Shown here in pieces: positions 1,277 to 44,035 of a stretch of DNA of 51,727 nt (the stretch's first letter is position 1; each line of letters opens with the position of its first letter). The position numbers and the translations under genes are program-made. Source of the stretch: Verrucomicrobiota bacterium (GTDB lineage Bacteria > Verrucomicrobiota > Verrucomicrobiia > Limisphaerales > JADLHS01); contig JANPGI010000105.1 in assembly GCA_031423875.1 (NCBI GenBank), positions 1-51,727 on the forward strand. The letters run 5' to 3'. The notes below the pieces were generated by a model. It was not told the DNA's origin and searched no databases. It was given only the letters and a program-made list of their open reading frames with translations.

Positions 1277-2032
1277 TTACTTCGCGGTCCTGGCCGAGCG
1301 CACGCTCCAGTCGTAATAAAGATACTGGCGTGTGGCGGGTGATGCGCCGCTGTGGACGGGGAGCGCAGGGACGTAGCCTTGGTATGTTGCGCCAGCGATG
1401 CCGAGGCTGGTCAAGAGTTGTTGATCGCAGTCCGTCATGGCCCAACTTTCAGAGCGGTTGCGAATGGCGAGCGATTTTTGCGATTTCTCGTATTGGCGAG
1501 TGGGGTCGCGATCCGTAAGTGAGGCGTCTATTTGCGGGCGTCCGAAGGGATAAATCACACGGTCATTGCCAACGGGCGGATCATTAGTGACGGATCTCAG
1601 CGAGAAGTAACTGACTGGCACACTCAGCGGTGGTGCTGGGGTAACTTTTGGCAACACGCGATATTGGGCAGGACAGATCGCAACGATGGCCGTTCGAATG
1701 AGAAGCGGAGCGGGCGACGGATAGGAAAGGTAATTGGCGATGTAGGCGGCGAGCGACCCGTCATAGCCTTTAGGATCCTGCGGTGTTGATGCTCCGATTC
1801 TGTAAGTGAAAAACATCCCCGTCCAGCAGGGGCCGGGCAGAAAGTCGTTGTTATCCATCGAATACATCTCAATGGCGACGCCGATCTGTTTGAGGTTGCT
1901 GGTGCAGTTGATTTGAAACGCCTTGGCCTTCGCCTTGGCGAGCGCGGGCAGCAACATCGCTGCGAGGATCGCGATGATGGCGATGACGACGAGCAGTTCG
2001 ATGAGGGTGAAGCCGGGGCGTCTGATTCTCAT
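1277..2032 (-). CDS. Prepilin-type N-terminal cleavage/methylation domain protein (DUF1559-like pseudopilin paralogue)
   Basis: MRIRRP|[29 protein letters not shown] followed by [22 protein letters not shown], the DUF1559-type signature CxxNLKQxG...Y..D. Confidence 0.85.
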
Positions 2033-4966: not shown

Positions 4967-5086
4967 GTGTTTCGTTTTGAACATAGCGCGTTCAGTCATC
5001 TCGGCCAACGGCATCTTTGTGTCATTCCAAAAAGAAACCGGGACGGTTCGCGTCCCGGTTTCCGTGAATCTCAAGCGGTTGGCATA

Positions 5087-7641: not shown

Positions 7642-8625
7642 TTACGGTGCGACAGTTCCTTGAAGGCGCGTGTAGTCGCGCACGTTTCCGGCGGTGCTGG
7701 GGGGTGTGGTAAAATTCAACAGGTCGGCACTCTTCGAAAAAAGATAGTCACCGGACCACTTCCAGTATTCCGCATGACCGTCAGCGAAGGAGATGGTGCA
7801 TCCGCGACCATGCCGTTTGCCGGGGGTATTCCAGTTGAACAATGCAGGCGCGGCACCTGTTCCCAACCCTGCGATGCCGAAGGCACCGTTGTCTATGCTG
7901 TACTCGTCTTCATCAAGAAAAACCGATGCTTGCGAGGCACTAGGGTTGTTGATGAGGCTTGTTTTATATGGAGTGCGCGGCGTGGTTAGACCGGGAGGAA
8001 CAAAACCGTCAGATACATTGCAATCAACCCAATTGATCCAATTCATCCCAATGCTCATGGAATAACTCCGAACCCGGGGATAAGCTGACTTGGGTGCGCT
8101 GGGGCTAGTCTCACCTATCGTGGCGCGGTCAGCGGGGCATTTGTAAACGCCCATCGCGGTGTTGTATCTGAAGAGAGTTCCGTTTTTGATGTTGTTGGTT
8201 TGAACCAAGATGGAGTCCACCATCGCATTGCCTTTGATCCAAGAGCAGTCGGTTGAGCCAGTGCCGCTGGTCCAGTTGCGCACCAAGGACTCATTGAAAT
8301 CGCCCGAATACATCGTCCAACAAAGCGTGAGCTGTTTGAGGTTGTTCAAGCATTGGGTCGTGTAGGCTTTTTCCTTGGCCTTGGCGAGCGCGGGCAGGAG
8401 CATCGCGGCAAGGATGGCGATGATGGCGATGACCACGAGCAACTCAATCAAAGTGAATCCATTCGAGCTATCACGCGCGGATCGATTTGTTCTGTCTGCG
8501 ACGTTGATTCGGCTGCAACGAGGCGTTGACGAGAATGGGTTGAACACGGAGCTAAATAACCTCACAGCAAAAAGACTTTCAACGAAAAACACCTTCCAGA
8601 CCATCTGCATTCCCAACATATCCAT
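7642..8625 (-). CDS. Prepilin-type N-terminal cleavage/methylation domain protein with H-X9-DG C-terminal motif (DUF1559 family)
   Basis: [45 protein letters not shown] and C-terminal [19 protein letters not shown] (H-X9-DG). The start is uncertain: the ATG at 8625 gives an atypically long 55-aa leader, and the nearest in-frame alternative is GTG at 8547. Confidence 0.8.
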
Positions 8626-22525: not shown

Positions 22526-22579
22526 AGCTCTTCACCCTGAAAACCTGAGATACATTCCTAACAAACCTAATTTTAAAAA

Positions 22580-23209: not shown

Positions 23210-23219
23210 TCGGGTTAGT

Positions 23220-27304: not shown

Positions 27305-27350
27305 AAATTTGATAGGGTCGGGATGATCTCGGAACAGTTGATCAAAATCG

Positions 27351-28655
27351 TCATGGCACGAACAGATTCAAATCAATCGAGTCCGCCATGGCTTTGTAAC
27401 CAAGCACGTTCAAATGCAACCAGTCGTTGGCATTCACGCCCGGGAAATACTCCGCCTTGAACTTCGTCGTATCCGCTGGATCGCGCACCGCCGCGTCGAA
27501 ATCGATCACGCCGTCGAACACCGTGTTCGTGCGGAACCATGCGTTGACGAACTGACGTTCCTCTTCATGAAGCGTGCTGTAATAGCCGTTGCCACCGAAC
27601 GGCGTGATCGTTGCGCCATAACATCGAATCCCCCGCGCCTTGGCCTTGGTGGCGATCTGGGCGTAAGCGTTCACGAGATTCGTCGCAGTGGTCATGCTGC
27701 TGGCGCCGCTGCCGATGTCGTTCACGCCTTCAAAACAGACGAAGTAGCGCACGCCATTCTGCCCCAGCACGTCCCGGTCAAATCGGTTCACCGCCGCGAC
27801 GCCAAGCCCGCCGAAAATGCCGTTACCGCCAACGCCCATGTTGGCCACCCCGACGCCCGCTGTCGGCGCGTTAGTGATCAGACGTTCGGCGAGAACATCC
27901 GTCCAACGATTGTTTAAGTCGTCGGTCGAACCCCGACCATCGGTGAGAGAATCACCCAGCACTGCAATGGTTCTGCCGAAGCTGTTGGCCAACACCTCTA
28001 AGCCGGTGATGATATACCAATGCTTGGTCTTGCTAGCGCTCGGCATGCTCGCAGCGGAAAGCACATTACTGGACTGGATGAACGACGTAGTGCGCGAGCC
28101 GGGATGTCCGTTGATAGTCGTGGCGGAGATGTCGCCGAAATAGATGCTGATGGCGACGTTGGTCAACGCTGGTAAGTCTAATGTGATCGGATCGGAGAAC
28201 ACCGCTTCGCCGCGCGGAATGACGACGCCGGGAGCGCCGCGAAAAGTGACGTTCTTTTCCGTGGCGGAGATGATGTCGCCATTGCCGATGCTGGCGGAGC
28301 TGGGAGCTAGCGCGACGCGGGCGGCATTGATGTTCACGGCGTTGGTGCCGTAATTGTTGGAGAAACGCACCCGCACCTGTTTTCCGCCAATGCTCACACG
28401 GATAAACTGGCGCAGCGTGCTGTGAGCCAGCGGCGCAGGCGGCAGGTTTCCAGGTTCGGTCAGTTGTGGTGCGGTGCCCCAAGTTGTCACCCAATGGCCG
28501 TCTGCGGCGCGGAGTTCGGACGGCAAACAGACAAGCGCGCCGAGCAACACCATAAACATGAACGCCGAGTTCGATTTCCGAATTCTCACCAGGGCAGTCA
28601 GTGCGCAGCGAGAGAAGGCACGCGCGTTAGTGATGGGATGATTGTCAGTTTGCAT
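27351..28655 (-). CDS. SGNH/GDSL-family hydrolase (probable acetyl esterase) with an N-terminal beta-sandwich domain
   Basis: Block I IAVLGDSLTDG, block III GVNDIG, C-terminal DWLHLN (DxxH). Alternative starts at 28559 and 28553 (MFMVLLGALVCL signal). Confidence 0.8.
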   Translation of the reverse strand: MQTDNHPITNARAFSRCALTALVRIRKSNSAFMFMVLLGALVCLPSELRAADGHWVTTWGTAPQLTEPGNLPPAPLAHSTLRQFIRVSIGGKQVRVRFSNNYGTNAVNINAARVALAPSSASIGNGDIISATEKNVTFRGAPGVVIPRGEAVFSDPITLDLPALTNVAISIYFGDISATTINGHPGSRTTSFIQSSNVLSAASMPSASKTKHWYIITGLEVLANSFGRTIAVLGDSLTDGRGSTDDLNNRWTDVLAERLITNAPTAGVGVANMGVGGNGIFGGLGVAAVNRFDRDVLGQNGVRYFVCFEGVNDIGSGASSMTTATNLVNAYAQIATKAKARGIRCYGATITPFGGNGYYSTLHEEERQFVNAWFRTNTVFDGVIDFDAAVRDPADTTKFKAEYFPGVNANDWLHLNVLGYKAMADSIDLNLFVP

Positions 28656-30699
28656 AGGAACGATAGTAGCGGGTTGAGGTGTTGTTGACGTCTGTGAATT
28701 GCCACGCGCCGTTCACGTCGGCGATGTTGGTGGACACGTTTTGCCAGATGACAGGCGGTGCAAGATTCGCCGTCGCCTGAACGACATTCGTCGAGTTGGG
28801 CGCGCCAAGGAAATGAAGCGTCACCGTGTCATTCATGTTGCGAACAATGTTGGTGATCCACGCTGGTGGCAACGGCAACGGAATACTGAACACAGTTCCA
28901 GCCGCACCCGGCCCACCGCTGAACGTCGTGCCGATCAAGGAATCTCCCACGCGCGACACCGGCGCGACGGGATAAGCACCGTACGCGTTCGTGCCGTTGC
29001 TCGCGAGCGCGCTGAAGTTGTGCACCAGCGTGAACTGAGAACTGCTTAGGTTATACGAAAACACTGCTCCCGCCGCGCCAGTCCCACCGGCGGATGCCGT
29101 GCCATAGAGAACATTGCTCGACAGAATCAAACCGGCGGCGGGAGATGCGCCACTGGTATTGGTACGCGTGACAGGATCAATCGCACCGAAGTGATGTAGC
29201 ACAGAAAAGCCGCTGCCGTTGGTAGAGAGCGAAAAGATTGTGCCGCGTCCGCCGCTGCCACCCGCGAAAGTTGTTCCGTACAGCCAGCCATTCGAGAAGA
29301 CCAGTCCACCGTAAGGAATCGCGCCGTCGGCGTTCGTGCCGGTCAGAGGATCGAGCGGCGCGAAGCTGCGAAGCGTGGTAAAACCGGCACCGTTCGTCCC
29401 GATGGAAAACACCACGCCGCTGCCCCCGGTTCCACCGGCAGAGGCAGTGCCGTAAAGCCTACTGCCCGAAATAATCAAACCTCCCGACGGAACTGCGCCG
29501 TCAACATTTGTACCCGTCTGTGAGTGCAGGATATTAAAATTATACATTACCGAGAAAGTCACGCCGTTGGTCGTGAGTGAGTAGATTGTGCCGTTTGCGC
29601 CCGCACCGCCCGCTGTGGTTGTTCCGTAAAGCGTGCCGCCAGCCAATGCAAGCAATGCCGTCGGACTCGCGCCGCCAGAGTTAGTAGCAGTGTCTGCGTG
29701 AACGGCGGAAAAATGACGCAGCACCGAAATGCTGCCGTTGGTTTGAACCGAGAAGACTGTTCCCACGCCGTTGTTGCCACCGGCGAAACTGGTGCCAAAG
29801 AATCCGTTTCCAGAAGCGGTTAAATCTCCATCCGAATTGTTCGCATCAGGCGCAACGGCGAAGGTGCGGAACGTGACAAAGTTCGAACCATTCGCGCTGA
29901 GATAGAAAGCCGTGCCTGCACCATTGGCGCCGCCGTTGAAAGTCGTGCCGCACAGGACGCCATTCAACAAAGCCACGCCCGCCGCCGGATTCGCGCCATC
30001 AGAGTTGAGACCGTTGCTCAACGGACTGAAGCGATGCAGCGCGATTCCGTCGGGGCCGTTGAATGTGTTCGTGCTAGGGCTAGGAGGCGGTGTTCCACCC
30101 GTGCCGTTGTCGAGATCAGTCACCGTGAAAGTGTTGCTGCTGACACCGAACACAAACTTGTCCAAGTCCAGCCCGTTTTCCCGCGCCCCGATCTGAACCG
30201 TCTGCGTTAGGTTTCCGGCAGTGACATTGAACCCGGACTGACTTGTGAACTGCGAGAGGTTGATCCATTTCCACATCCCGCTCCCGAGTGTTCCGCCGCC
30301 CGTCACCACGTCCACGCTATTGCTGAACCCGACGCTGCCGAGGCCGTTGGCCAATACCCAATCCGAGTTGAGCGTGGGTGATTTGCTGCCAAAGCTGGCT
30401 GCGTAAAACATGCTGTCGTCGTTGAACGTATCAGGGCCGACGCGCAGTCGGGCATAAAGTTGATAGAGTCCGGCAGCGGGAAAATTGACCGTGTAAGTCG
30501 CGACGCGCGTGGAGTTGCTGGGATTAGATCCTCCACCGATCGAAGTGATGGTGATAAACGCCGGACTGCTGCTGTTACTCACCGCCCAATCAGATCCAAG
30601 CGCACCGGACTCGGCTTGCATCGTCACTGAATTGGCCTGAGCGAGTCCTGGCACGATCACGATCAACGCAATCAGTAACCATTCTGTAAGAAATTTCAT
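28645..30699 (-). CDS. Secreted protein: N-terminal CBM-like domain + seven Gloeo_Verruco (GloVer) repeats + C-terminal YYR module
   Basis: Signal peptide. MQAESGALGSDWAV...YQLYARLRVG...LDLDKFVFG (CBM6/35-like logic). Repeats of the type DGA.P.GGL....G.LYGTT..GG..G.GT[IV]FS...NG..F..L..F. Confidence 0.8.
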   Translation of the reverse strand: MKFLTEWLLIALIVIVPGLAQANSVTMQAESGALGSDWAVSNSSSPAFITITSIGGGSNPSNSTRVATYTVNFPAAGLYQLYARLRVGPDTFNDDSMFYAASFGSKSPTLNSDWVLANGLGSVGFSNSVDVVTGGGTLGSGMWKWINLSQFTSQSGFNVTAGNLTQTVQIGARENGLDLDKFVFGVSSNTFTVTDLDNGTGGTPPPSPSTNTFNGPDGIALHRFSPLSNGLNSDGANPAAGVALLNGVLCGTTFNGGANGAGTAFYLSANGSNFVTFRTFAVAPDANNSDGDLTASGNGFFGTSFAGGNNGVGTVFSVQTNGSISVLRHFSAVHADTATNSGGASPTALLALAGGTLYGTTTAGGAGANGTIYSLTTNGVTFSVMYNFNILHSQTGTNVDGAVPSGGLIISGSRLYGTASAGGTGGSGVVFSIGTNGAGFTTLRSFAPLDPLTGTNADGAIPYGGLVFSNGWLYGTTFAGGSGGRGTIFSLSTNGSGFSVLHHFGAIDPVTRTNTSGASPAAGLILSSNVLYGTASAGGTGAAGAVFSYNLSSSQFTLVHNFSALASNGTNAYGAYPVAPVSRVGDSLIGTTFSGGPGAAGTVFSIPLPLPPAWITNIVRNMNDTVTLHFLGAPNSTNVVQATANLAPPVIWQNVSTNIADVNGAWQFTDVNNTSTRYYRSYAN
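28882..30048 (-). repeat. Array of about seven ~48-aa Gloeo_Verruco-type repeats (coding)
   Basis: LCGTTFNGGANGAGTAFYL / FFGTSFAGGNNGVGTVFSV / LYGTTTAGGAGANGTIYSL / LYGTASAGGTGGSGVVFSI / LYGTTFAGGSGGRGTIFSL / LYGTASAGGTGAAGAVFSY / LIGTTFSGGPGAAGTVFSI. Confidence 0.8.
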
Positions 30700-30739: not shown

Positions 30740-33700
30740 CTACAACTGCGCGGGGGTCACGGCGCGGTAAAATCGCCGAGCGGCGCCTTGCGGGTTGTCC
30801 AAGACCACCGCCGCATGATTCGACGGTTGCGCGGGCACATCTTTCAATCGCAGCCAGGCTGTGTCACCCAGAGACGACTTGTATTGCACGGTGAACGAAT
30901 GGTTCGAGATCGCGTTAAAACTCAGCGAGACGATACCGGCATTCGCGCTGATGCTTTCCATGCGAAGGCTACCGCTAAAATTGTTCGTCTGCATCGGCGT
31001 GACCAACCGGTAGAAACGCTGCGCATCGCCGGCCACGGTATTGGTCAGGTTGACGACGCGATTCGTCGGATGCGCGGGGACGTTGCTCAACATTGACCAC
31101 TGTGCCGCGTCCAGTGACGATTTGAAAAGCAGACTGTAAGTGCGATTGGAACTGGCGAAAAATTGCAGGACGACATTGCCATTCTGCGCAGCGATCTGCG
31201 AGAACCTCAAGGCGCTCGCCGCGAATTGCGGATGCGTGCCCGCCAAATATTCCTCCCAGTTCGTCAGCCCATCAAGGTCTGGATCGTCGTTCGCGTCCGC
31301 GATGAAAACGAACGTGCCGAACTCCTGCTCCCACGCATCCGGCAGACCGTCGTTATCCGAATCACTTGTGCCGACGGCTTGCCCGGGCGTTGGCGCAGCG
31401 GCAATCCAGTGGGTCGGTTCGTTCCCGTAACTGGAAGCGGGCACGCGTTGCAACGACATGCCGCTGCCGTCAGCGGCTGGCGGCCAAGGAGTTTTATCAT
31501 TGTAACGCACCGCATCCATCGCCACGTACGGCACGCCATTGGTGTTGGGATTATCGGGCGCTTGCAACTCCACGTTCTCTCCGCCGTCCTGTAACTGTCC
31601 GGCAAACGGGCCAAAGATTTGGATGTTCGTCGGCACATTGTATTGGGAGCGGAACGCCGTCGGGTTGGTCGCCACGACGAGCAAAGTGCCGTTAGCGCCA
31701 ATCGTCACATTCGTCGGAAACGTGAAGTCCACGCCGCTGAGTTTCCAGGTATTCGTTGGGAAGGTGGCGTGCGCCAACGCCACCGGACTGGCGGTGAGGT
31801 TGAGCAACTCGACAAATTCCACGCCGTTGGTTTCCGGGTTGTAATGGATTTCGCTGATGACCACCGGGCCGATGACTGGAGTTCCATTCGCCACACCAAG
31901 TGTCAACGTCGCCTGCTGTGGATACGATTCCTCACCGGCACTATTCACATAGCGTCCAAAACTCACGCCATTGAATGACGCACCGAACTCCGCGCTGTGG
32001 CTGTAGCCGGTCAATGTACCATCGAGCGCGGCAGAAAAGAGATGCACGTCGTCGCCGGTGGAACTCAGCAGGAAACTATTCGTCGCGCCGGGCGTGGCGT
32101 TGAAATCGTCTTCATCGAAATAAATCCGCGCACCCGCGTTGATGACGGTGTTGTTCGGGATGCGGAACTTCTTCGGCGTGTCCGGAGCGTCTGTCAAATA
32201 CCAACCGCCGATGTTCACGTTCGTGCCAGTGGGATTGTAAAGTTCGACGGCGTCCTTTTGCGGCGGATCGGTGTGGGCAAGCACTTCGTTGATGACGATG
32301 GGCGCAATCGTCTGCACAGGATCATCCGCGCCCGGCGAGCCGCCGGGATTCGTGCTGGCACGCCAGCGATTGCCTTTGTCCGGCGCTTGCGACACACCGG
32401 GAGCGACCTGCACGAGCGAGAAATCCGCCACATCCGGCCCGACCGGCCAGTCGGGGCGATCATCATACGTGACAGAGAAGATCGGCGTGCCGAGCGCGTG
32501 TGAAAGCGTTAGCTGTTCGCCGCTGTTATCGAGTTGCCCGGTGTATGTGCCGCCGATGGTCACGCCCGGATACTTGCTAGTGAACGCCGCCGCGTTGCGC
32601 GCGAGCACGAAGAATTGTCCCGGCGCGAGAGTCGTTCCGTTTGTGAAGGTGAACGTCAGTCCGCTCGTGAACGTCAATCCGGAAAGATTCAGCGTATTCG
32701 TACCGGTATTTTTGAGTTCGAGGAATTCCAGATTGTTACCGGTCGTCGCGCCGATGGTGGGTGGATTGTACATGATCTCCGTGAGGGCCAGCTTGCTCAG
32801 GTCTTGCGGCGGAAAAAACACCGCTTCCGTCAGCGCGCTCCAATTGCCTGCATCGAACACACGCGCGCGCACCACCGTCGGCGCGTTGATCGGGATGGAG
32901 GCCGCGTAAGCCTGCGCGCTGGCCGCGATTGCGCCCGTCCCGTATTGGCGGGGGTCACTGCCGTCTGTGGTGAAATAGATCAACCCGGCTAAATTTGTGT
33001 GCGAAATGGTGAGCGCAAATCCGTTGCTCACCGCGCCGCCAAACTGGCTGAACTCCGGCGCGCTGGTGCTGGGAAAAAGAAGCGCCGCTTGCAAGCGCGC
33101 GATGGTGCGTTGGTGCATCACGTTGGGAAACCAGTTCGTGTACAGCTTATGCAACTCCGCCACCCACCACTCGTCGCGCGTCAAGGTCTGACCAGTGCCG
33201 CCATTGCCTCCGATCGCGAACTCGCGGGCGTCGCCCCAGCGCGCCGATTCGCCGACGATGGCGCGGTCAATTTCCGCAGCGAGCAATTGCAACCGGGCAA
33301 CGTTGTTCGACGGCGAAAGGGCGCCGCCGTTGAACATCTGCTTCTGCACGCGGTCGCCATACAGGCGGCGGAACTCGGGCCAGTTGCGCAATTGATTATA
33401 GAGGCGCGACGGCAATGATCCGTCACTCAGGCCGTTCACCCGATCATCGTTTCGCAGCCGGTTGAAGGCGATTTCCTGATCCCAGGGCAGGAAGATCCAT
33501 TTCGTGGTCGGCAAGCCATTGGTGGCATTGGCCCGACGGTGCGCCCAATAAGAGTTGTGCGGGTTGCTGATTTGCAGCCAGTCGTTGGCCTCCACCAAGG
33601 CGTGCAGCAGGAAGTAATCAATCAGGTTGTCCAAATCCACCTGATCTGCCACGGCCTGAAAAGCGGACTCGCTGTTGATGCCAAGATTGACCAGGGCGAT

Positions 33701-36445
33701 CAGGTTGTCCCAATCGGCACGGCTTCCGTCCTGTAGCTCGGAGTTATCCTTGATGATGTCCCAATCCTTTTCGTAACCACCGAGGTGATTTGCGAAATAC
33801 GTCGGCCCGAGCCGCTCGATGACATTGTAGATGCCCCAGTAAAGTCCGTTCATGTAGAGATGCACATGTCGTCCGCGACTCGCCAGATGGCTCATGTCCC
33901 GCATCGCCTCCTTCACCCACTGATCCCGGAGATACGTGGCGTTCTCAGGCCGATACCGCAGGGGAAAATTTTCTGCCCACGGATAAGTCCCGCCACTGAA
34001 CGGATCGTAACGCGTCGTCCACGTATCGGCCCAAGTCGAACGCAGGATGACGCTGTCAAAATCCGTCACCCCGCCGCCATACCAGTCGTAATCAAGCCGG
34101 GTCGGCCCGTAGTCGCCTTTGAATTCAAGACGGAATGAATGTTTCGGCGTGCGCACGTTATCCCGCCCCGCCTGACCATGCATCTGCACGGCGCAATTGA
34201 TCTGGAATTGCGAGGTATTGTCTCCGCTGAACAACTCCGCCGAGGTGGCGCGTTCGCCACGATCTGTCACCGCGTCCACGTAGATGCCCGTCGTGGCGTT
34301 CCAGAACGAATCATGATCGCTCACCAGCGATAGCGTCGGGATAGCACGCAAGTCGTTGGAGATAGTGACGCCGTAGTTGGTGTGGTTCACGATGAACGGA
34401 TCCATCCCGTAGTCGGCGGGAAAACTGCCCTGCCAAGTGGTCGGATAGCCCGGCTGCACATCCGATTGCTGGAGCACCTGGTTGAGGAAAATATACGAAT
34501 GCGTGTCTGGCTCACTCGGAATGTGATTCGTCAGAAATGCCGCCGCGCGCAATAACCGCGTGCCGGGAATCGAAACCGGCGCGGTATAAAGCGTGCCGTT
34601 CGTGGGCGACGGAGTACTGCCGTTGGTCGTCCAGTAAATCGAAGCCGTCACCGTGGCTGACGTGATTCCCACCGTGAACGGCGTGTCGTAGAAGCCGCGA
34701 TCCACGCTGAACTTCGTATCCGCTACCAATCCGAGATAACCCGCGCCGTTGTTCGTGCCGGGCGATGGCAGCGTGAAATAGCGCTCCACAGACGCGCCTG
34801 TTGCGAGTCCTTCCAACTCCGGCAGGATAAAGAAGTCCGTGTCCGTGGCGCTGACGTTCAAGCCGTGTATCGCCAGAACATTTGCTCCGGCCAACAACAG
34901 ACCGGGCGAATTGGTAAATGTGATTTCTTCATACACGAGCGATTGCGAATCCGTCGCGGTCGCCGTCGCGGTGGAATTCCATTGCGGCGACCCTGGCGCA
35001 TTGCGCGACGCGACGACTTGACCGTTGATGTAGGCGATAAAGCCGTCATCGGATTTCATCCGCAGCTTCAGAGTCTGGAACGCGTTCGGATTGGCGACAT
35101 TAAACGGGACACGGATGTAAGCCGTAGCGTTGTTGCTCAACATCAGTGCGCCGAGTGCATTGGTCGCGGCCTGCACGGTCAGGCGTTCGACTTGGAGCGC
35201 GTTGAGGAAAACGCCAGTTCCGCTGCTCGTCGGATCGCGTCGCCCAGAAATGAGCATCGTCCCCGAACCGGTCGCGTTTGCCTCAAAGGTGAAACGACAT
35301 TGCTCGTTGGAGGTGGGTGACGTCGTCGGATTGAACGTATAGTTGCTTTTAACGAGCAGACCGTTGGCATACCAATCCGAGACCTTAGTGCTGGTGCTAT
35401 CATCGTCAAACGACCACACGGTGAAACGATGTGACGTGTTCACATTGAGTCCGCTTAGACTGATGTCGAGTCCCCCCGTGCCCGAGCTGTCCTCCGAACG
35501 AATGAAATCTCGCAGCAACAAGGATTCGGTGAACGCGCCACTGTTCAATGGAACGCCGCGCAACCGATCGTCGTATCCGAATCCTACCGTGTTCGACACT
35601 GTAATGGTGATGCCGGAAAACACCCGCACGGTCGCCTGCGTTTGAATCGTCGTGGCGGAAACGTTGGAGTTGATGACGAAGGAATTGAACCCGGCCTGCG
35701 TCAAACCCGCCGCTGCGGAAGATCGGTCGTTGATATCCACGGACAGCACCGGCGTGGCCGTCACGCCAACCAAATAACTGGCAGGCGTGTTCACCGCCGT
35801 CCACGCGGCATCGTTGAATGCTGTCGCGGTCCACGTCGTTCCCAACGCACCGCTCGTCGGCACCAGCACGCGCGAAGTTGCCCCGGATGAAAGCAGCGAA
35901 GTGCTGATCGTGGGGATTTCTACGCCGTAAGAAACGTTCTGCCGCTGGTTCGGATACACTGGCGAATACTCGTCCACCACCACGCCTCCCGGCTGCACCA
36001 GCGCGAGATACTCGCCGTTGTTGTCCAACTGGAAATTGGCGTGCAACGGCCAGCCGAGGTTCGCACGATTTTTTCCAGAAGCGAACACCACCTGGTAACC
36101 GCCCGCCGGAAGATTCGTCGCCGGGAAAGCCCACTTGGTCAGGTTGGCAAGTTCATCCGTGAGGTGCCATCCGCCGAGATTCACCGCGCCGGGGCCGCTG
36201 TTGTAAATCTCGATCCAACTCGGGCTCTGCGAATCTTCGTCGCGCAATCCGCCTCCATTGTTCGCAAGAAACTCGTTGATGAAGACGGCGGCATGACTCG
36301 CAGGCGCTACGACCAACGACAACAGCAACAGGCCAAGACTTGATCGAGAGCGGAGATCAAAGCGGTGTGATTTCACCGCGCCCGCCTCGGACAGGCCGCA
36401 GCACCAGCGCGACTCGCAAGACGACGATTGGCATTTCATAAACAA
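30740..36445 (-). CDS. Giant secreted CotH-family (atypical kinase fold) protein with four lamin-tail domains, two CHB_HEX_C-like modules, TSP3-like Asp-rich repeats and two tandem C-terminal FYR modules
   Basis: LTDs: VFINEFLANN...WIEIYNSGPGAVNLGGWHLTD; LTEIMYNPP...LEFLELKNTGTNTLNLSG; VINEVLAHTDPPQKDAVELYNPTGTNVNIGGWYLTD; VISEIHYNPETNGVEFVELLNL. CotH core (about 33116..34498): YLRDQWVKEAMRDMSHLASRGRHVHLYMNGLYWGIYNVIERL. IYWTTNGSTPS and IYFTTDGSDP modules. DSDNDGLPDAWE...DDPDLDGLTNWEEY. Confidence 0.85.
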   Translation of the reverse strand: MFMKCQSSSCESRWCCGLSEAGAVKSHRFDLRSRSSLGLLLLSLVVAPASHAAVFINEFLANNGGGLRDEDSQSPSWIEIYNSGPGAVNLGGWHLTDELANLTKWAFPATNLPAGGYQVVFASGKNRANLGWPLHANFQLDNNGEYLALVQPGGVVVDEYSPVYPNQRQNVSYGVEIPTISTSLLSSGATSRVLVPTSGALGTTWTATAFNDAAWTAVNTPASYLVGVTATPVLSVDINDRSSAAAGLTQAGFNSFVINSNVSATTIQTQATVRVFSGITITVSNTVGFGYDDRLRGVPLNSGAFTESLLLRDFIRSEDSSGTGGLDISLSGLNVNTSHRFTVWSFDDDSTSTKVSDWYANGLLVKSNYTFNPTTSPTSNEQCRFTFEANATGSGTMLISGRRDPTSSGTGVFLNALQVERLTVQAATNALGALMLSNNATAYIRVPFNVANPNAFQTLKLRMKSDDGFIAYINGQVVASRNAPGSPQWNSTATATATDSQSLVYEEITFTNSPGLLLAGANVLAIHGLNVSATDTDFFILPELEGLATGASVERYFTLPSPGTNNGAGYLGLVADTKFSVDRGFYDTPFTVGITSATVTASIYWTTNGSTPSPTNGTLYTAPVSIPGTRLLRAAAFLTNHIPSEPDTHSYIFLNQVLQQSDVQPGYPTTWQGSFPADYGMDPFIVNHTNYGVTISNDLRAIPTLSLVSDHDSFWNATTGIYVDAVTDRGERATSAELFSGDNTSQFQINCAVQMHGQAGRDNVRTPKHSFRLEFKGDYGPTRLDYDWYGGGVTDFDSVILRSTWADTWTTRYDPFSGGTYPWAENFPLRYRPENATYLRDQWVKEAMRDMSHLASRGRHVHLYMNGLYWGIYNVIERLGPTYFANHLGGYEKDWDIIKDNSELQDGSRADWDNLIALVNLGINSESAFQAVADQVDLDNLIDYFLLHALVEANDWLQISNPHNSYWAHRRANATNGLPTTKWIFLPWDQEIAFNRLRNDDRVNGLSDGSLPSRLYNQLRNWPEFRRLYGDRVQKQMFNGGALSPSNNVARLQLLAAEIDRAIVGESARWGDAREFAIGGNGGTGQTLTRDEWWVAELHKLYTNWFPNVMHQRTIARLQAALLFPSTSAPEFSQFGGAVSNGFALTISHTNLAGLIYFTTDGSDPRQYGTGAIAASAQAYAASIPINAPTVVRARVFDAGNWSALTEAVFFPPQDLSKLALTEIMYNPPTIGATTGNNLEFLELKNTGTNTLNLSGLTFTSGLTFTFTNGTTLAPGQFFVLARNAAAFTSKYPGVTIGGTYTGQLDNSGEQLTLSHALGTPIFSVTYDDRPDWPVGPDVADFSLVQVAPGVSQAPDKGNRWRASTNPGGSPGADDPVQTIAPIVINEVLAHTDPPQKDAVELYNPTGTNVNIGGWYLTDAPDTPKKFRIPNNTVINAGARIYFDEDDFNATPGATNSFLLSSTGDDVHLFSAALDGTLTGYSHSAEFGASFNGVSFGRYVNSAGEESYPQQATLTLGVANGTPVIGPVVISEIHYNPETNGVEFVELLNLTASPVALAHATFPTNTWKLSGVDFTFPTNVTIGANGTLLVVATNPTAFRSQYNVPTNIQIFGPFAGQLQDGGENVELQAPDNPNTNGVPYVAMDAVRYNDKTPWPPAADGSGMSLQRVPASSYGNEPTHWIAAAPTPGQAVGTSDSDNDGLPDAWEQEFGTFVFIADANDDPDLDGLTNWEEYLAGTHPQFAASALRFSQIAAQNGNVVLQFFASSNRTYSLLFKSSLDAAQWSMLSNVPAHPTNRVVNLTNTVAGDAQRFYRLVTPMQTNNFSGSLRMESISANAGIVSLSFNAISNHSFTVQYKSSLGDTAWLRLKDVPAQPSNHAAVVLDNPQGAARRFYRAVTPAQL

Positions 36446-36463: not shown

Positions 36464-37825
36464 CTATTCAAACTTCCAGTGATCCAGATTCAGCAAGGGT
36501 TTCTCGCCTCCCGTGAATTTCACATACAGGTCCTGCACGCCGCTCGCGGCTTCAACTGCGCATGAAATTTCTTTCCATTGCTGCCAACCGCCGGTGTTTT
36601 CTACTTTGCATTTGCCAATCACCTTGCCGTCCAAAGCGCCGAGCCGGAGTTCGATGTTGCCGCCCTGTTCCGCGCTGGCGACGCGGGCGCTAAATTTCTT
36701 CGCACCCTTCGCACCGAAATCAACTCCAGCAACTTTCACCCAATCGCCATTGTGGAGTTCAGACAGGTTCAAGCCTCCGTCGCTGCACGGCTCTGTCTCG
36801 ACGCCGCTTTGCGCGCAGAAGGTTTCTCCCTCTACCCGTACATAGGGATTGAGATGGCCAAGTTGGCCGACACCATTCGTCGTATAGGTGACTTTCTTGA
36901 TCGAGCCGTCATCGTTGAAACTGAATTCCTCGATGCCGAGGTTGCGGCGGAAGCCTGTCGGGATACCCGCCTGTTTCGCGACGATACGGTTGTGATAGAT
37001 GTGATACCAGCGGCCTTTGAACTCGAACTGCGCGGAATGGTTGTTGTCGTTGAAGTTGAGCGGTGGTTGATCCGCCACGATGCCGCGATAGGTAAAACCG
37101 TTCGTTGGATTATCGCTTGTCTGATAATCAATCCGCATCTTTGCATTCGGCGTTGTAGAATAGGAAAAGTAGTAAGTCCCGTTGCGCTTGAAAACCCATG
37201 CTGCCTCAAAAAAGTTTGTCGCGTTCATCTTGATGACTTCGCCATTGATGCTGGTCATGTCGCGATTGAGCCGGGCGCAGCGAACATTGTCGTCGCCGTT
37301 GCCGCCCATGTAGAGGTACGCCTGTCCATCGTCGTCAATGAAAGCACCGGGATCAAAGAGCCACATGTTCTTCGCGGGCTGGATGCCGGGAGTTCCGTGA
37401 GTGACGAGCGCTTTGCCGAGAGGTTCGGTGAACGGCCCGACCGGAGTGGGCGCGACGGCGACGCCGATGTCCGCACCGCCGTTGCCGAAATAGAGGAAGA
37501 ATTTTCCGTCTCGCTCAATCGCCGCTGGTGCCCAAGTTTTCTTTGCCCACTTGGTGCTGTCACTCGCGCGGAACAGAGAGCCGTGATCCGTCCAGTTCTT
37601 CATGTCGCTGCTCGATATGCAGATGACGTTGGGAATGTTGTAGCTGCCACCCACGGGACTTTCATCGTCGTTGGAGCAATAGACATAGACGCGATCCTTG
37701 GTGACGAGTGTGGATGGATCGGCCAGATAACGATGTGAGGCGATGGGGTAATCAGCCAGCAGTGCAGGCGCAGAGGCGACAAGGGCGATACAGGAGACAA
37801 AGAGCAAGAACCGTGATTGTTTCAT
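36464..37825 (-). CDS. GH43 glycoside hydrolase with C-terminal CBM6 (arabinoxylan arabinofuranohydrolase/xylosidase-type)
   Basis: Signal peptide. YLADPSTLVTKDRVYVYCSNDDE, WAPAAIERDGKFFLYF, five-bladed-propeller GH43 pattern. CBM6: VEGETFCAQSGVETE...GDWVKVAGVDFG...NIELRLG...TGGWQQWKE. Confidence 0.88.
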   Translation of the reverse strand: MKQSRFLLFVSCIALVASAPALLADYPIASHRYLADPSTLVTKDRVYVYCSNDDESPVGGSYNIPNVICISSSDMKNWTDHGSLFRASDSTKWAKKTWAPAAIERDGKFFLYFGNGGADIGVAVAPTPVGPFTEPLGKALVTHGTPGIQPAKNMWLFDPGAFIDDDGQAYLYMGGNGDDNVRCARLNRDMTSINGEVIKMNATNFFEAAWVFKRNGTYYFSYSTTPNAKMRIDYQTSDNPTNGFTYRGIVADQPPLNFNDNNHSAQFEFKGRWYHIYHNRIVAKQAGIPTGFRRNLGIEEFSFNDDGSIKKVTYTTNGVGQLGHLNPYVRVEGETFCAQSGVETEPCSDGGLNLSELHNGDWVKVAGVDFGAKGAKKFSARVASAEQGGNIELRLGALDGKVIGKCKVENTGGWQQWKEISCAVEAASGVQDLYVKFTGGEKPLLNLDHWKFE

Positions 37826-39720: not shown

Positions 39721-42700
39721 TTAAGGCGTAGAAATAAGACGGAAGAAGACCGATCCGTTTGCCGGGTTAATCGTCACGTTGACCGGGCTGCTGCCACCGC
39801 CGGGATAATCACCCCAGTTGCTGTTGATACCCACGCTGACGCTGTTCGTCTGCGCTTGCAGCTTGTAACCACTGCCGGGCCAGGTGAATTGCAGGTTGTT
39901 GCCCGTCTGTGTGAAGCCCAATGACGGTGGAGCCAACACTGTGGCGACTGTGATACTGCCGTCCACGGCGAGGGCGTTGGTCCAAGTCGCACCACCGCCG
40001 GTGACGGTCAGTGCCGCACCGCCGGTGACCGGCTGGCTGAACAGGGTGAACTTAGTGCCCACGGTAAGAACCGGGCCGAGGTTCGCCACAGTGAGAGTTC
40101 CAGAACCAGTCTTGGACAATACTCCAGTCACAGCAGCTACGTCATTGGACTGCGCGAGGGATGTGTTCACCTGCACAGAAACATTGCCGCCGATGGTCAG
40201 GTCGCTAACAGCCGTGAGTGTGCCGATCGCACTGGCTGACGCACCGGGCGAGAACGTGGTGCCCGCCTCCAAGGTGATTGGGCCGTAGAACGCGCCCGTG
40301 CCACCCAGTGTGCCGCCATAGACGGCGGTTGAGCTGGCAAAGTTCTCATTGTTCATGAACAACGCGCCGTTGCTGACGGTGAGGGATCCCGTGATGTTAT
40401 TCGTGCCGGTGAGCGTCAGGGTGCCAGCGGCCAGTTTCACAATTGAACCCGCTCCGCTGATGGCGCCGCCGAAGGTCAAGTCGTTCGCGCGATTAAACAC
40501 AAGCACGCCGTTGTCAGTCACAGGGCCGGTGCCGATGTCACCAGTGGTGCCGCCGTCACCGACTTGGATCGTGCCAGCGGTGATGACTGTGCCGCCCGGA
40601 TAATCATTGTTAGCCGTGAGCGTCAGAACACCAAGACCACGTTGCTCTACGATGCCGCGGTTACCGAACGGCAGGGTCGGCGCGAAGGTGATGAGGCCCG
40701 GGAACGTAAAGTCTTCCGGATGGTTGAAGGCAACTCTCCGTGGATTTTCGTTCGGAGTGAGGCTGTTGGTGAAGAGGATGCCACCAACAATCGAGCCAGC
40801 ACCGGGAGTGCCGCCATCGCCGAGAACAAGTGTGTTGTTGGCGATGATCGTGCCGCCTGTGTAAGTATTCGTGCCGGTCAAGGTCACGTCGCCCACGTTG
40901 ACATTGTTGGCATCTACCAATATGCGACCCGTTCCGACAACAGGACCAGCGTAAATGAAGACTGCGTTGTCTTGGCGGACAAGTTTCAGGGTGCCATTAT
41001 TGGTCACCATCGAACTGGACAGTGACCCTTGATTGCCTTGTGCAGGCTGGAACGTGGCGCCGGGTTCGATGAGTGTCCAACCGGTATAGGTGTTCGCGCC
41101 GAGCGCTTGAAACAGGTTGCCCGCACCTCGAACAATCACATTGCCCGTACCGCTAATGCCGCCGCCGCCAGACATGGTGAACGATCCAGTGCTGTCAAAG
41201 ATGAAGGTGCCGTCGTTGACCACGGGAGCGGTGGAGTTCAATTTACCCGTCGCCCCGCCGTTGCCCACCTGCAAGGTGCCTGCAATGATAGTGGTCTGGC
41301 CTGCATAGCTGTTGTCACCGGGCAAAACGACCTTGCCCGTGCCATCTTTGGTAACGGTTCCGGTACCGCTCACAGTGCCATTGGTAAGAGTGCTGGAAGT
41401 GTTGAAGACGAGGCTGCCGTTGTTTAGGATGTTCCCGCTGCCCAGCGAGCCGCTGGCCCCGCCCACGCCAACTTGCAACGTTCCGGCAGCGATCGTGGTC
41501 GCGCCGGAATACGTATTGTTCCCGGTCAAAACCCACTTGCCCGCGCCGCTCTTCGTCAGCGCAGTCGCGCCACCATTGTCACCGAGCGAGGCTGCGAGAG
41601 TATTATCGTTCATGTCTGCGCCCGACAAGGTGAGCGTACGTGCGCCGGTGCCGCTCAAGGCGACTGAACCAGCGTTGCCCAGAGCCAACGCGCCAGAGCC
41701 TGAAGAGTTAATCGCACCGTTCCCAGTACCGAGCGTGAACAGACGATCACTGGTCGCCCCGCTGCCGGTGTATTGTAGTGTGCCGCCATTGAGCACCAAA
41801 CTTCCTGCGGTGTTGTTCGCAGCACCGATGTCGCTCGCAGCTCCACCGTTGGCCAACGCACCGACGCTCACCGTGCCGCCGCTGATAGTGGTGGCACCAC
41901 TGTAAGTATTGACGCCGCCTGCCAGCGTAAGAGTGGTGCTGCCACTCTTGGCCAAACCGCCGCTACCACCGATGAGGTTGGCGCCGCTTGATGTGATGCT
42001 GTAAATCTTGGCACTGCTGCTCACCGCAACGCCCGTAGGCGAAACCGGGGAATTGAGGACCACATTGGTCTCTCCCGTAGCGGTGTCGTCAAACAATGCG
42101 GTGTTGCCGTTGACAAAAACTGCCGAAATGCCGCCAGCCTTCCAGTTGTTCGCCGTGGCGGTGTCCCAGTTGCCGTTGCCCAAGCCAGTCCAGACAAACG
42201 CCAGTGAGGTGATGTTCAGTTTGATCGTATTGCCGTTGGTGGTGAGATTGCCACCGGCACCGGTCAACGTTCCGAGAGTGACCGCCGGGGCCGAGCCGCT
42301 GCTCCAAGAGAACAACGGGTAGCTTTGACCAATGGCGAACGTGCCGCTGTTGACATTGACGGTGATCGTGCCGCCAGCCGAAACTGAACCTGCCGCGATC
42401 AACGCGGTTGATGTGCTGGTGACGTTGTTGAATTCTAAGGTGGAACTGGTTCCCACAGTCAGCGTGGTCGGCGCGATCGGCGTGCCGGTGGCTTTGACAC
42501 CGAGTGCCGCGCTGTTGGCAATCGTGATGTCCCCTGCGCCTGCTGAACCTTCAATCACCAGCTTACCAGCGCTGACCGTGGTCAATCCGCTGTAAGTGTT
42601 CGCACCGGAAATTGTCAGCGTGCCCGATCCGATTTTGGTGAACGTACCGCCACTGCTGGTCAGAGCGTTTGTGAGGGTCACACTCTGTCCACCCGTATCA

Positions 42701-43791
42701 ATTCGATACGACTGGGAGGCTGCAGTGCTGAAGCGCGGGGAATAATCGAAGGTGTTGTTGACGCTGTATTGCAGCGTGCCACCAGTGAATGAAACCGTGC
42801 CGCCGACTCCAAGCGGTCCAAAAATGCCAGCGCTTTCCGCCCCGTTGACGACCAAAGCACCGCCACTGAGAATGGTATTGCCCGTATAGGTGCTCGCGCC
42901 GGAGACGGTGAGCGTGCCGTTGGCTACCTCCAGATTGCCGGAGCCAGAAATGACCCCGGTAAGAGTCTGCGCCTTGGAAGGAGCATCATATTTGAAAAGC
43001 GTTCCATTGTTGACGATGCCTTGGGAGCCTAAGGTACCCACCCCAGCCGGGCTAAGCACCGTATTATGCATCAGAACCACAGTGCCACCAACGATGGTGA
43101 TGGGACTGTTAATGGCGCCGTTACCCACCGCCCCCGAAAGCGAAGGACCACCCCAATACAATGTGCCGGAACCGGTTTTCTGAATCAGAGTTCCCGGACC
43201 GTTGGCAACAATAAGGTTGTTGGTGACCCACCAATCTCCCGTTCCAGCAAACAACAAAACATGCACAGCGCCGCCGCCTGATTGTACCCGCACGTTGGGA
43301 TAGATGATGCTCGGGGCCGTTGAATTATTGATGAATTGATGGAGCTGGTTGGCATTACCCGGTCGCCAAATGAGATTCAGTATGTTCGCGGAAGTATTTC
43401 CTAAACTGAACTGTGCGCTGGCCGTGTCATTAGAGATCGAAAGAATGGCAAGGTTGACAGAAGCCCCGACCGGAGAATAGATGTTCACGTTGCCGGTTTG
43501 GGGAGGGATCATGGAGAAACTCACCCCTGAGTTCCCGAAGCCGCTGGCCAGACCACCATTATAGTCCAAGGTGAGATTGCCGGGCACGATACCGCTCCAC
43601 TGACCGATGTCACCCCCACCGGTACCGGTGATGACTGGCAAGGTGCCGCTCCAGTTGCTGGCAGCACCGACGTATGTTCCAGTACCATTTCCGCCGTTCC
43701 AAGGGCGTATCGTCTGGCCGAAGGCAGCCGTCGTAGCGAAGGCGCAGCACAGGAGGATTAATACTTTAATATCTTTGAGTCTTGTTTTCAT
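39721..43791 (-). CDS. 1356-aa secreted PATR (autotransporter-associated beta-strand repeat) protein without a beta-barrel translocator; C-terminal FFR module
   Basis: Start at MKTRLKDIKVLILLCCAFATTAAFGQ (cat 43789..43791); the ORF extends to 44019. More than 15 PATR units (GANTYSGLTTVSAGKLVI, NNTYSGATTIAAGTLQVG, DNSYAGQTTIIAGTLQVGNGGATG, TNTYTGGTIIANNTLVLGDGGTPG, NNDYPGGTVITAGTIQVGDGGTTG...). Confidence 0.88.
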   Translation of the reverse strand: MKTRLKDIKVLILLCCAFATTAAFGQTIRPWNGGNGTGTYVGAASNWSGTLPVITGTGGGDIGQWSGIVPGNLTLDYNGGLASGFGNSGVSFSMIPPQTGNVNIYSPVGASVNLAILSISNDTASAQFSLGNTSANILNLIWRPGNANQLHQFINNSTAPSIIYPNVRVQSGGGAVHVLLFAGTGDWWVTNNLIVANGPGTLIQKTGSGTLYWGGPSLSGAVGNGAINSPITIVGGTVVLMHNTVLSPAGVGTLGSQGIVNNGTLFKYDAPSKAQTLTGVISGSGNLEVANGTLTVSGASTYTGNTILSGGALVVNGAESAGIFGPLGVGGTVSFTGGTLQYSVNNTFDYSPRFSTAASQSYRIDTGGQSVTLTNALTSSGGTFTKIGSGTLTISGANTYSGLTTVSAGKLVIEGSAGAGDITIANSAALGVKATGTPIAPTTLTVGTSSTLEFNNVTSTSTALIAAGSVSAGGTITVNVNSGTFAIGQSYPLFSWSSGSAPAVTLGTLTGAGGNLTTNGNTIKLNITSLAFVWTGLGNGNWDTATANNWKAGGISAVFVNGNTALFDDTATGETNVVLNSPVSPTGVAVSSSAKIYSITSSGANLIGGSGGLAKSGSTTLTLAGGVNTYSGATTISGGTVSVGALANGGAASDIGAANNTAGSLVLNGGTLQYTGSGATSDRLFTLGTGNGAINSSGSGALALGNAGSVALSGTGARTLTLSGADMNDNTLAASLGDNGGATALTKSGAGKWVLTGNNTYSGATTIAAGTLQVGVGGASGSLGSGNILNNGSLVFNTSSTLTNGTVSGTGTVTKDGTGKVVLPGDNSYAGQTTIIAGTLQVGNGGATGKLNSTAPVVNDGTFIFDSTGSFTMSGGGGISGTGNVIVRGAGNLFQALGANTYTGWTLIEPGATFQPAQGNQGSLSSSMVTNNGTLKLVRQDNAVFIYAGPVVGTGRILVDANNVNVGDVTLTGTNTYTGGTIIANNTLVLGDGGTPGAGSIVGGILFTNSLTPNENPRRVAFNHPEDFTFPGLITFAPTLPFGNRGIVEQRGLGVLTLTANNDYPGGTVITAGTIQVGDGGTTGDIGTGPVTDNGVLVFNRANDLTFGGAISGAGSIVKLAAGTLTLTGTNNITGSLTVSNGALFMNNENFASSTAVYGGTLGGTGAFYGPITLEAGTTFSPGASASAIGTLTAVSDLTIGGNVSVQVNTSLAQSNDVAAVTGVLSKTGSGTLTVANLGPVLTVGTKFTLFSQPVTGGAALTVTGGGATWTNALAVDGSITVATVLAPPSLGFTQTGNNLQFTWPGSGYKLQAQTNSVSVGINSNWGDYPGGGSSPVNVTINPANGSVFFRLISTP

Positions 43792-43947
43792 GAACTGCAA
43801 GGTTGTCATAAAGACAGCTAGTTGATGGGGTTTGTTTGGTGTTTTCATTTTACTATTGGAGTTGGTGGTGTGTGGGTAGAGATAGATTGGTTGTGATGGT
43901 TTCGGTTCAGTTGTTGCATAGATTCTGTCAAAGAATGTATGGAAAAC

Positions 43948-43965
43948 CATACGACGATTGTCGTA
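43948..43965. promoter_or_regulatory. Palindromic operator S2, ATACGACGATTGTCGTAT
   Basis: In the divergent region between the PATR giant (ATG 43791) and GH115 (ATG 44077). Outer 7+7 nt are perfectly symmetric. Confidence 0.65.
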
Positions 43966-44017
43966 TCTGCAGGAGACGGTCAAACCCGGTTGAAGTGTCC
44001 AAAAATGTCTGCTCACC

Positions 44018-44035
44018 ATACGATAAATGTCGTAT
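44018..44035. promoter_or_regulatory. Palindromic operator S3, ATACGATAAATGTCGTAT
   Basis: 70 bp centre-to-centre from S2 and 42 nt upstream of the GH115 ATG. Both S2 and S3 are preceded by CC (CCATACGA). Confidence 0.6.

Follow-up and report, generated by a model that had tools for sequence, protein, structure and literature searches.

A repeatable C-terminal domain of secreted Verrucomicrobiota proteins, with a putative role in surface attachment or sorting

Contig JANPGI010000105.1 of a Verrucomicrobiota bacterium (assembly GCA_031423875.1) was analyzed over positions 1 to 51,727 (the window). Five of its large open reading frames (ORFs), all on the minus strand, were seen in translation to end in a shared tail. 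Are these tails copies of a single domain, and what might a domain do at the very end of secreted proteins that are otherwise unrelated? A first-pass annotation, made from the sequence alone, had proposed a candidate sorting or anchoring signal marked by a final [FY][FY]R. We found the tails to be one ancient, previously unnamed domain of about 55–75 amino acids (aa), carried by secreted proteins of Verrucomicrobiota. A role in attachment or sorting is considered below as a tentative reading.

Verrucomicrobia and related bacteria of the Planctomycetes-Verrucomicrobia-Chlamydiae (PVC) group are abundant degraders of polysaccharides in soil, peat and freshwater. To our knowledge, the delivery of giant adhesins and enzymes to the surface of these diderm cells, and their retention there, is essentially unknown.

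Six tails on five secreted proteins

The five carriers, with the databases that identified their domains, are as follows.

30740..36445, minus strand: carrier 1, LTD/CotH giant, 1901 aa (Pfam)
2069..5074, minus strand: carrier 2, GH25 protein (Pfam and NCBIfam)
28645..30699, minus strand: carrier 3, 'choice-of-anchor' GloVer tandem-repeat protein, 684 aa (NCBIfam)
39721..44019, minus strand: carrier 4, giant with autotransporter-associated beta-strand repeats (PATR; eight Pfam PATR matches, and TIGR02601)
5087..7588, minus strand: carrier 5, secreted protein of 833 aa, its body unassigned apart from one weak Ig_3 match (Pfam)

Six tails were found in these proteins by translation and extraction, at the places given by the first-pass annotation and all on the minus strand. 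The limits below are envelopes of hidden Markov models (HMMs), and those of the 833-aa protein are approximate. The outside profiles were built from sequences beyond the window.

30758..30952, minus strand: CotH copy 2, terminal module; outside-representative profile, E 3.5e-15
31001..31195, minus strand: CotH copy 1, internal module; outside-representative profile, E 1.8e-14
2075..2260, minus strand: C-terminal module of the GH25 protein, ending FYRARQ and stop; outside profile, E 3.6e-17; locus-only profile, E 4.2e-12
28657..28845, minus strand: C-terminal module of the GloVer protein, ending YYRSYAN and stop; outside profile, E 2.3e-18
39727..39933, minus strand: C-terminal module of the PATR giant, divergent subtype, LQFTWPGSGYKLQAQTN...VFFRLISTP and stop
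5090..5260 (about), minus strand: C-terminus of the 833-aa protein, with a shortened subtype (some 50 aa), ILTWTGPGILQAASVVTGPY...SPYTNT...QFFRVRR and stop

The CotH carrier starts with the signal-peptide-like sequence SSLGLLLLSLVVAPASHA. Four Lamin-tail (LTD) domains, a CotH kinase-like domain and CHB_HEX_C/Fn3_assoc were detected by Pfam ahead of its two modules, together with a weak, sub-threshold TSP3-like match (E 0.008). The modules are joined by the linker LVTPMQTNNFSGS, and copy 2 is followed by a seven-residue tail, AVTPAQL, and the stop codon (30740-30742). This two-copy arrangement was kept in the homologues P0008, P0041 and P0059 (P numbers denote database proteins found with the module profiles). 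In the GH25 carrier, the only enzyme of the five, the module follows a GH25 lysozyme-like domain, a PATR repeat, a Big_9/cadherin-like domain and an Ig domain. The GloVer carrier matched NCBIfam TIGR03803 in seven stretches (E 3.7e-63), and an exact look-up of this protein found it not to be on record.

A Sec-type signal peptide was read from the translation at the N-terminus of all five carriers (LLAVALLVSAITITQAQ in the 833-aa protein). The earlier description of six tails on five secreted proteins with unrelated upstream domains was thus borne out. Its statement that the carriers lack a beta-barrel and the tails of the PEP-CTERM, LPXTG and type IX secretion system (T9SS) kinds was also supported, as no such model of Pfam or NCBIfam matched any of the five.

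The longest ORFs of the PATR giant and the GH25 carrier begin far 5' of their signal peptides. The likely start of the GH25 carrier is an ATG at about 4966 (MKRLLHSLL...), directly before the signal peptide, and that of the PATR giant an internal ATG at about 43791 (MKTRLKDIKVLILLCC...). As listed, the PATR ORF runs at its 5' end over the start (43939) of a divergent GH115 ORF.

The tails form one superfamily

Within the window, two pairs of tails were significantly similar by BLASTP: CotH copies 1 and 2 (43% identity, E 6e-19), and the GH25 and GloVer tails (32% identity, E 2e-9). No other pair reached significance, and for the remaining tails leave-one-out HMMs failed as well. The statistics available inside the window were therefore insufficient for the PATR and 833-aa tails, and outside sequences were needed.

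A database search with the six tails produced 31 fragments of three subtypes, mostly metagenomic, and all were protein C-termini. Two of them had organism names, both Verrucomicrobia. The PATR tail had 13 homologous fragments, each ending at that tail. This word-indexed protein search gave short C-terminal fragments only, and with a broad 40-sequence alignment it gave just two matches.

Longer sequences came from genomes, one for each GTDB species, which were scanned with a four-sequence alignment of the GloVer subtype; 38 loci were obtained. These were picked by the module match and not by nearness to a stop codon. Most were labeled Verrucomicrobiota (Limisphaerales, Verrucomicrobiia or 'subdivision 3'); one was labeled Pontiella and one an unclassified 'bacterium'. 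Selection with the GloVer type left the other subtypes under-sampled, and a PATR-type profile had no match in the 38 loci.

Six loci (L002, L012, L026, L030, L031 and L032) were labeled uncultured Bifidobacterium or Bifidobacteriaceae (third-party metagenome-assembled genomes). These records contain typical verrucomicrobial genes, and their GloVer carriers were 39–70% identical to the query tail. The labels are probably wrong.

Iterative HMMs started from the GH25/GloVer tails and from the CotH tails converged on the same set of about 50 domains in the six-frame ORFs of the loci. A further profile was made from 11 divergent locus tails and was free of window sequences. It matched the PATR tail over its full length (E 5.7e-7), and also matched CotH copy 2, GH25 and CotH copy 1.

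The subtypes were also compared by hhalign with an automatically generated alignment of 467 family copies, taken from unrelated proteins of the database. The probabilities were 99.4% for the GH25/GloVer type, 99.2% for CotH, 92.1% for PATR and 83.9% for the 833-aa type. Across family alignments, that of the PATR tail was 92–97%. The 833-aa type, represented by a profile of eight homologues, aligned with the PATR type at 95.5% (E 1.5e-8), and with the 11 divergent locus tails, which were hand-picked, at 94.9%.

Could the six tails have nothing in common but a chance [FY][FY]R and a beta-strand-like composition? The four subtype pairs of the window that were not significant by BLASTP or leave-one-out HMM would fit this view, as would the 833-aa tail, which was recovered by none of the HMMs. 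On the other hand, independent profiles connected every subtype, with E values from 1e-6 to 1e-22, and the strand order was identical in two predicted structures (see below). Furthermore, the window and the loci together have 1046 ORFs of 150 aa or more, and 60 of these carry [FY][FY]R among their final 12 residues, a 17-fold enrichment over the 3.5 expected. The view is already refuted for five of the tails, the 833-aa tail being the sixth, and taken as a whole it is most improbable.

Judged by these sequence comparisons, all six tails belong to one superfamily, of which the PATR tail is a divergent member and the 833-aa tail a shortened and the weakest one. The single shared module of the first-pass annotation was thereby upheld, with outside profiles joining all six.

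A few ORFs that end in [FY][FY]R are unrelated chance matches, for example those of the GH43-type DFDYFR. L002:10089-11807, L007:2712-4343 and L007:4307-5944 end in ...DFD[YF][FY]R..., and no module HMM recovered them; by eye only, their upstream sequence resembles a GH43-type C-terminal beta-sandwich. Weak partial matches to the profile were seen at internal positions of L006:7079-10216 (aa 285-331) and L011:3790-6813 (aa 244-289), with E values of 1e-3 to 1e-4 and covering HMM positions 10-50 only. They could represent noise, or an Ig-like domain related to the module. An L002 protein of the same length as the 833-aa carrier, also encoded beside a pseudopilin, was considered as its orthologue and rejected; only the tails align (E 0.13).

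Family size, copy number and position

With a profile combining the GH25/GloVer and CotH subtypes, HMMER was run exhaustively over 1.84 billion representative proteins. The profile matched 22,609 of them at a threshold of E<=1e-3, of which 1,765 also passed E<=1e-10. Domains were mapped in the best 148 of the 22,609, a list that whole-protein scoring biases to multi-copy proteins; with this bias, 132 of the 148 had 2–12 copies in tandem, distributed as follows.

1 copy: 16 proteins
2 copies: 49 proteins
3 copies: 38 proteins
4 copies: 21 proteins
5 copies: 12 proteins
6–12 copies: 12 proteins

The last copy ended no more than 10 residues from the C-terminus in 142 of these 148 proteins. In the 38 loci, 48 of 52 module matches ended 2–6 residues before the stop codon, and about 10 of the locus copies lie in flanks that had played no role in the selection of the loci. 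The strict C-terminal position suggested by the six window copies thus held in both samples. What had been taken for a single module that is always terminal is a terminal array: the position stood, and the single copy gave way to a domain repeatable in tandem.

Only P0061, P0067 and P0077 were true exceptions, with a further domain of at least 180 aa after the modules. One of the other non-terminal cases was an apparent frameshift, and in another an FYR-like last strand lay at the very end, outside the envelope. The sixth, P0032 (7939 aa), had partial matches only. No transmembrane helix or PEP-CTERM followed the module in these six. By eye, the modules of P0061 are followed by an SGNH/GDSL-type esterase-like domain, and those of P0067 and P0077 by 180–215 aa of other sequence.

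The carriers proved as diverse as the window had suggested. The cargo domains of representative carriers were fn3, NHL/teneurin-NHL, Ig, SBBP, F5/8-C, MBG, cadherin-like and cohesin, and further DUF11, GH9, Calx-beta, LTD and PhoX. Small proteins of 320–490 aa, made of a signal peptide, one canonical fn3 and two to five modules, formed a class of their own (P0044, P0046, P0058, P0060, P0078 and P0100). The genomic context of P0060 (locus L039) was uninformative.

A signal peptide was seen on every carrier in the window (five of five), and outside it a crude heuristic found a signal-peptide-like N-terminus in 61 of 93 Met-starting representatives. In line with the first-pass proposal, the module is restricted to proteins of extracellular type that bear signal peptides.

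Is the domain already named? No model covered it in Pfam-A (isolated tails, E<=10) or NCBIfam (whole carriers, E<=0.1), and none of either database lay over the module in the multi-copy relatives at E<=1. No description of it was found in the literature searched, and a tblastn search of a plasmid collection gave no match. The named members of the protein clusters were all Verrucomicrobiota, with NCBI names derived from their other domains. In the cluster of P0040, a protein with DUF11 and the module, P0189–P0191 are 54-aa fragments under the JGI name 'nitric-oxide synthase (brain)', an evident misannotation.

We consider it highly probable that the module is a real, unnamed and strictly C-terminal domain family.

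Predicted fold

The GloVer tail was modeled by AlphaFold2 from a 20-sequence alignment as a compact six-stranded sandwich (pLDDT 92, pTM 0.76), with FYR as the last strand. The model of the PATR tail (pLDDT 85) had the same strand order.

A Foldseek search of the PDB gave nothing at E<=1e-3. The best neighbors were small sandwiches of a generic kind, namely fibronectin type III (FnIII) domains and Tencon, carbohydrate-binding modules (CBMs) of family 56 and of Ruminococcus, and ToxA, with TM scores of 0.5–0.64 that were not significant (E>=0.03). A sequence search of the PDB returned transthyretin only, at a non-significant E of about 0.08.

The motifs L.W, Y.hQ, W and FYR follow one another in the order of strands B, C, C' and F of FnIII, which suggested an FnIII-like fold that would stop at the equivalent of strand F. 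This mapping of strands is an inference, since no significant match was obtained when the family was aligned by hhalign with canonical fn3 domains taken from the carriers themselves (E 0.078, probability 0.7%).

Terminal and internal copies

Internal copies of the arrays retained RFYR and were separated by short linkers. Since [FY][FY]R is kept inside the arrays, it is a motif of the core, in the last strand, and not a tag recognized at the C-terminus. The first-pass reading of this motif as a C-terminal signal therefore did not hold in its original form.

Terminal copies differed from internal ones in other respects. The protein ended 4–7 residues past the Arg of FYR in 120 of 134 terminal copies (P0033–P0179), most often at 4. 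The last residue was Pro in 55% of terminal copies, versus 14% of all genes in the loci, and Pro at position +4 was found in 37% of terminal versus 11% of internal copies. The closest relative in another protein was a terminal copy for 85 of 142 terminal copies, and for 51 of 292 internal copies. These results suggest that the last copy, with the actual C-terminus, is under a constraint of its own.

They bear on the view that the module is a structural FnIII-like spacer or oligomerization unit, forming stalks, or fibers or a surface layer paired through edge strands, and holding no sorting or anchoring information. In favor of this view, the module is repeatable with short linkers, FnIII domains are its best, weak structural neighbors, and canonical fn3 and Ig spacers are also present in many carriers. 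Against this, at the extreme C-terminus there is nothing beyond the module to space. The single-copy tails on giants, as in four window carriers, are hard to explain as stalks, and the distinct end features of terminal copies are not accounted for. We regard a purely structural role as unlikely.

Genes beside the carriers

The carriers lie in a neighborhood for xylan and hemicellulose utilization, as found in a Pfam scan of the window. Its carbohydrate-active enzymes (CAZymes) and esterases were GH10, GH115, GH43-CBM6, GH2, a CE15-like glucuronoyl esterase, a SASA esterase and a GDSL esterase. There were also a sugar transporter of the major facilitator superfamily, a malectin-domain protein, a LuxR-type response regulator and two hybrid histidine kinases, one with Reg_prop/Y_Y_Y and the other containing PA14. 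The ORFs are located as follows.

8626-11685: xylan neighborhood
16847-20050: xylan neighborhood
20154-20855: xylan neighborhood
20878-28655: xylan neighborhood
36464-37825: xylan neighborhood
43939-49251: xylan neighborhood

This setting would suit a module that binds a ligand, like a lectin or CBM or as an adhesive, with arrays adding avidity for a polysaccharide or the surface of another cell, and with a C-terminal position that is incidental. The small beta-sandwich and its weak Foldseek likeness to CBM56 and Ruminococcus CBMs are in line with this, as are the tandem repeats, which are typical of lectins, and the small fn3 proteins described above. However, the module was absent from all genes of the xylan neighborhood, including its soluble CAZymes (GH10, GH43-CBM6, GH115, CE15-like and GH2), and the GH43 enzyme bears an ordinary CBM6 instead. 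When 37 representative carriers were scanned, only one matched a glycoside hydrolase among the 25 families shown, namely GH9, and the GH25 protein is the sole enzyme among the carriers of the window. In addition, 98% of the module arrays are terminal, a restriction to the end of the protein that CBMs do not show, and none of the Foldseek matches was significant. Ligand binding as the main role thus appears unlikely, at perhaps one chance in a handful. Ligand-binding and purely structural roles nevertheless stay live rivals.

The window also contains four pseudopilin-like genes, which flank three of the carriers.

1277..2032, minus strand: pseudopilin-like gene (N_methyl, PF07963), 37 bp downstream of the GH25 carrier
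7642..8625, minus strand: pseudopilin-like gene (N_methyl and DUF1559), directly upstream of the 833-aa carrier
37962-38735 and 38797-39630, minus strand: two pseudopilin-like genes, directly downstream of the PATR carrier

The N-terminal 29 aa were identical in all four products. The first-pass annotation had put these neighbors forward as candidate machinery. In 560 kb of the 38 loci, only three such genes were found, and 35 of the loci had none within 10 kb of a carrier. Pseudopilins were rejected as general machinery on this count. Of the seven genes in the window and the loci, five directly adjoin a carrier, at a distance of no more than 110 bp and in the same orientation. This adjacency remains a lead, mostly for the divergent tails of the PATR and 833-aa types.

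The same genes matter for a further explanation, in which the module is a secretion signal. The folded terminal copy would be recognized in the periplasm by an outer-membrane translocon and possibly then be cleaved, like the C-terminal domain (CTD) of T9SS cargo. The translocon could be similar to a type II secretion system (T2SS) with abundant DUF1559 pseudopilins, or be specific to PVC bacteria. The strictly C-terminal position with its sharply defined end, the signal peptides and diverse cargo of the carriers, and the five abutting pseudopilin-like genes are all consistent with such a signal. On the other hand, no known cleaved secretion tag resembles a tandem array in which as many as 12 copies are conserved equally well, and other secreted enzymes of the locus do without the module. 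Pseudopilin-like genes are missing within 10 kb in 35 of the 38 loci, as noted, and no neighbor recurs. No CTD model of T9SS matched, and no CTD structure was among the 50 Foldseek matches listed. We judge a pure secretion signal improbable, to about the same degree as ligand binding. The analogy with a single T9SS-type tag drawn in the first pass did not stand in its original form.

Possible function

What, then, might the module do? Tentatively, and with somewhat less than even confidence, our preferred reading is a putative cell-proximal attachment or sorting end of surface-displayed Verrucomicrobiota proteins. After Sec export, the N-terminal cargo (adhesin-like repeats, propellers and a few enzymes) would project outward. 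The terminal copy would bind, non-covalently, a component of the envelope or a partner in the outer membrane. The internal copies, generated by duplication, would serve as a stalk and/or provide extra avidity. A module of this kind would function like the C-terminal repeat anchors of Gram-positive bacteria (GW, choline-binding and SLH) and would share the anchoring role of the T9SS CTD.

The 'choice-of-anchor' proteins are surface proteins whose relatives bear alternative C-terminal anchors, LPXTG, PEP-CTERM or T9SS (10.1101/2023.03.06.531300). In the GloVer protein of this class and in the PATR protein, the module occupies the anchor slot. This position, together with the tandem arrays and the co-located enzymes that lack the module, favors an anchor over a pure secretion tag.

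Several observations weigh against attachment or sorting. The proteins made of a signal peptide, fn3 and two to five modules would fit a matrix, lectin or fiber role at least equally well, and the weak Foldseek similarity to CBMs leaves ligand binding open. The list of the best 148 proteins, as a product of whole-protein scoring, is skewed to those with many copies. The resemblance among terminal copies could reflect an array order conserved in distant orthologues. All-against-all clustering of the genes in the 38 loci revealed no family that recurs beside the carriers, the largest non-cargo cluster being present in only five loci, and neither a binding partner nor machinery was identified there.

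A more specific and quite speculative version, which we think has a low chance of being correct, makes the module the recognition or attachment domain of a surface-display route specific to Verrucomicrobiota or PVC bacteria, an independently evolved functional analogue of the T9SS CTD. The FnIII-like terminal copy, ending at the equivalent of strand F, would expose an edge strand, and a partner would capture this edge by beta-strand complementation. Candidates for this partner would be a protein of the outer membrane and the pseudopilin-like proteins with DUF1559 encoded next to several carriers. If true, such a route would account for the strictly C-terminal position, the fixed end 4–7 residues after FYR and the terminal Pro.

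The family, found in an under-studied phylum, counts tens of thousands of members and lacks a name in the databases, and its position is fixed as strictly as for the T9SS CTD. Surface display in PVC bacteria can be approached through it: a candidate surface proteome is predictable from sequence alone, and the module may serve as a tag in reporter fusions and as a query for phylogenetic profiling of partner machinery. A plain structural or lectin role, if true, would be unremarkable. Even on the most conservative reading, the family deserves a Pfam or NCBIfam model, which would improve the annotation of thousands of verrucomicrobial proteins now 'hypothetical' or misnamed.

Comparison with known systems

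A close parallel in position and cargo is the T9SS CTD of Bacteroidota (Por_Secre_tail, PF18962/TIGR04183, and type B, TIGR04131), an Ig-like beta-sandwich of about 70–100 aa that marks proteins for surface display. Like the CTD, the module ends proteins that are exported by Sec and whose cargo varies widely, and it is predicted to be a folded sandwich. It differs in having six strands in its models instead of seven, in forming tandem arrays, which CTDs do not, in its verrucomicrobial hosts and in showing no evidence of cleavage. CTD models did not match whole carriers (Pfam-A and NCBIfam, E<=0.1), isolated tails (Pfam-A, E<=10) or multi-copy relatives (E<=1). No T9SS component was among the Pfam matches in the 52-kb window, and we know of no T9SS in Verrucomicrobiota.

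The short transmembrane sorting signals PEP-CTERM/exosortase, LPXTG/sortase, GlyGly-CTERM and MYXO-CTERM share the slot of the module and its types of cargo. In other organisms, PEP-CTERM or a comparable signal forms the end of PATR and 'choice-of-anchor' proteins. Unlike these, the module is a folded soluble domain without a signature motif, hydrophobic helix or basic tail. No NCBIfam model of a sorting signal matched the carriers, the tails of the window have no hydrophobic helix, and no sortase-like partner of the module was identified.

Other export routes were considered and rejected. No autotransporter (type V) barrel was among the Pfam or NCBIfam matches, and the PATR-bearing proteins end instead in a module of 66–74 aa; the autotransporter route was dropped because the barrel is absent. 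A type I secretion signal was rejected because all carriers have Sec signal peptides, and the beta-signal of outer-membrane proteins because the tails end in Pro, Gln or Arg instead of an aromatic residue.

Like FnIII (PF00041), the module is a small beta-sandwich that occurs in tandem arrays, and FnIII domains were its best, weak Foldseek neighbors (E 0.03–0.3). Its models have six strands, where FnIII has seven (A, B, C, C', E, F and G), and it obeys a strict C-terminal rule, unlike fn3. No fn3 match of Pfam fell on the modules, though the N-terminal fn3 of the same proteins was detected. The similarity to CBM56 and Ruminococcus CBMs, non-significant as it is, and the absence of the module from the CAZymes of the window do not place it among CBMs.

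Anchors such as GW, choline-binding, SLH and CWB2 resemble the module in their variable terminal tandem arrays, unrelated secreted cargo and restriction to a lineage. They differ in sequence and fold, and they bind wall polymers of Gram-positive cells, while the host of the module is diderm. No Pfam match to SLH, GW, CWB or LysM was found in carriers, tails or multi-copy relatives.

The module is thus outside every family tested, namely the T9SS CTD, fn3, transmembrane sorting signals, autotransporters, SLH/GW-type anchors and CBMs. By analogy with these systems, it would work most like a C-terminal anchor or sorting domain.

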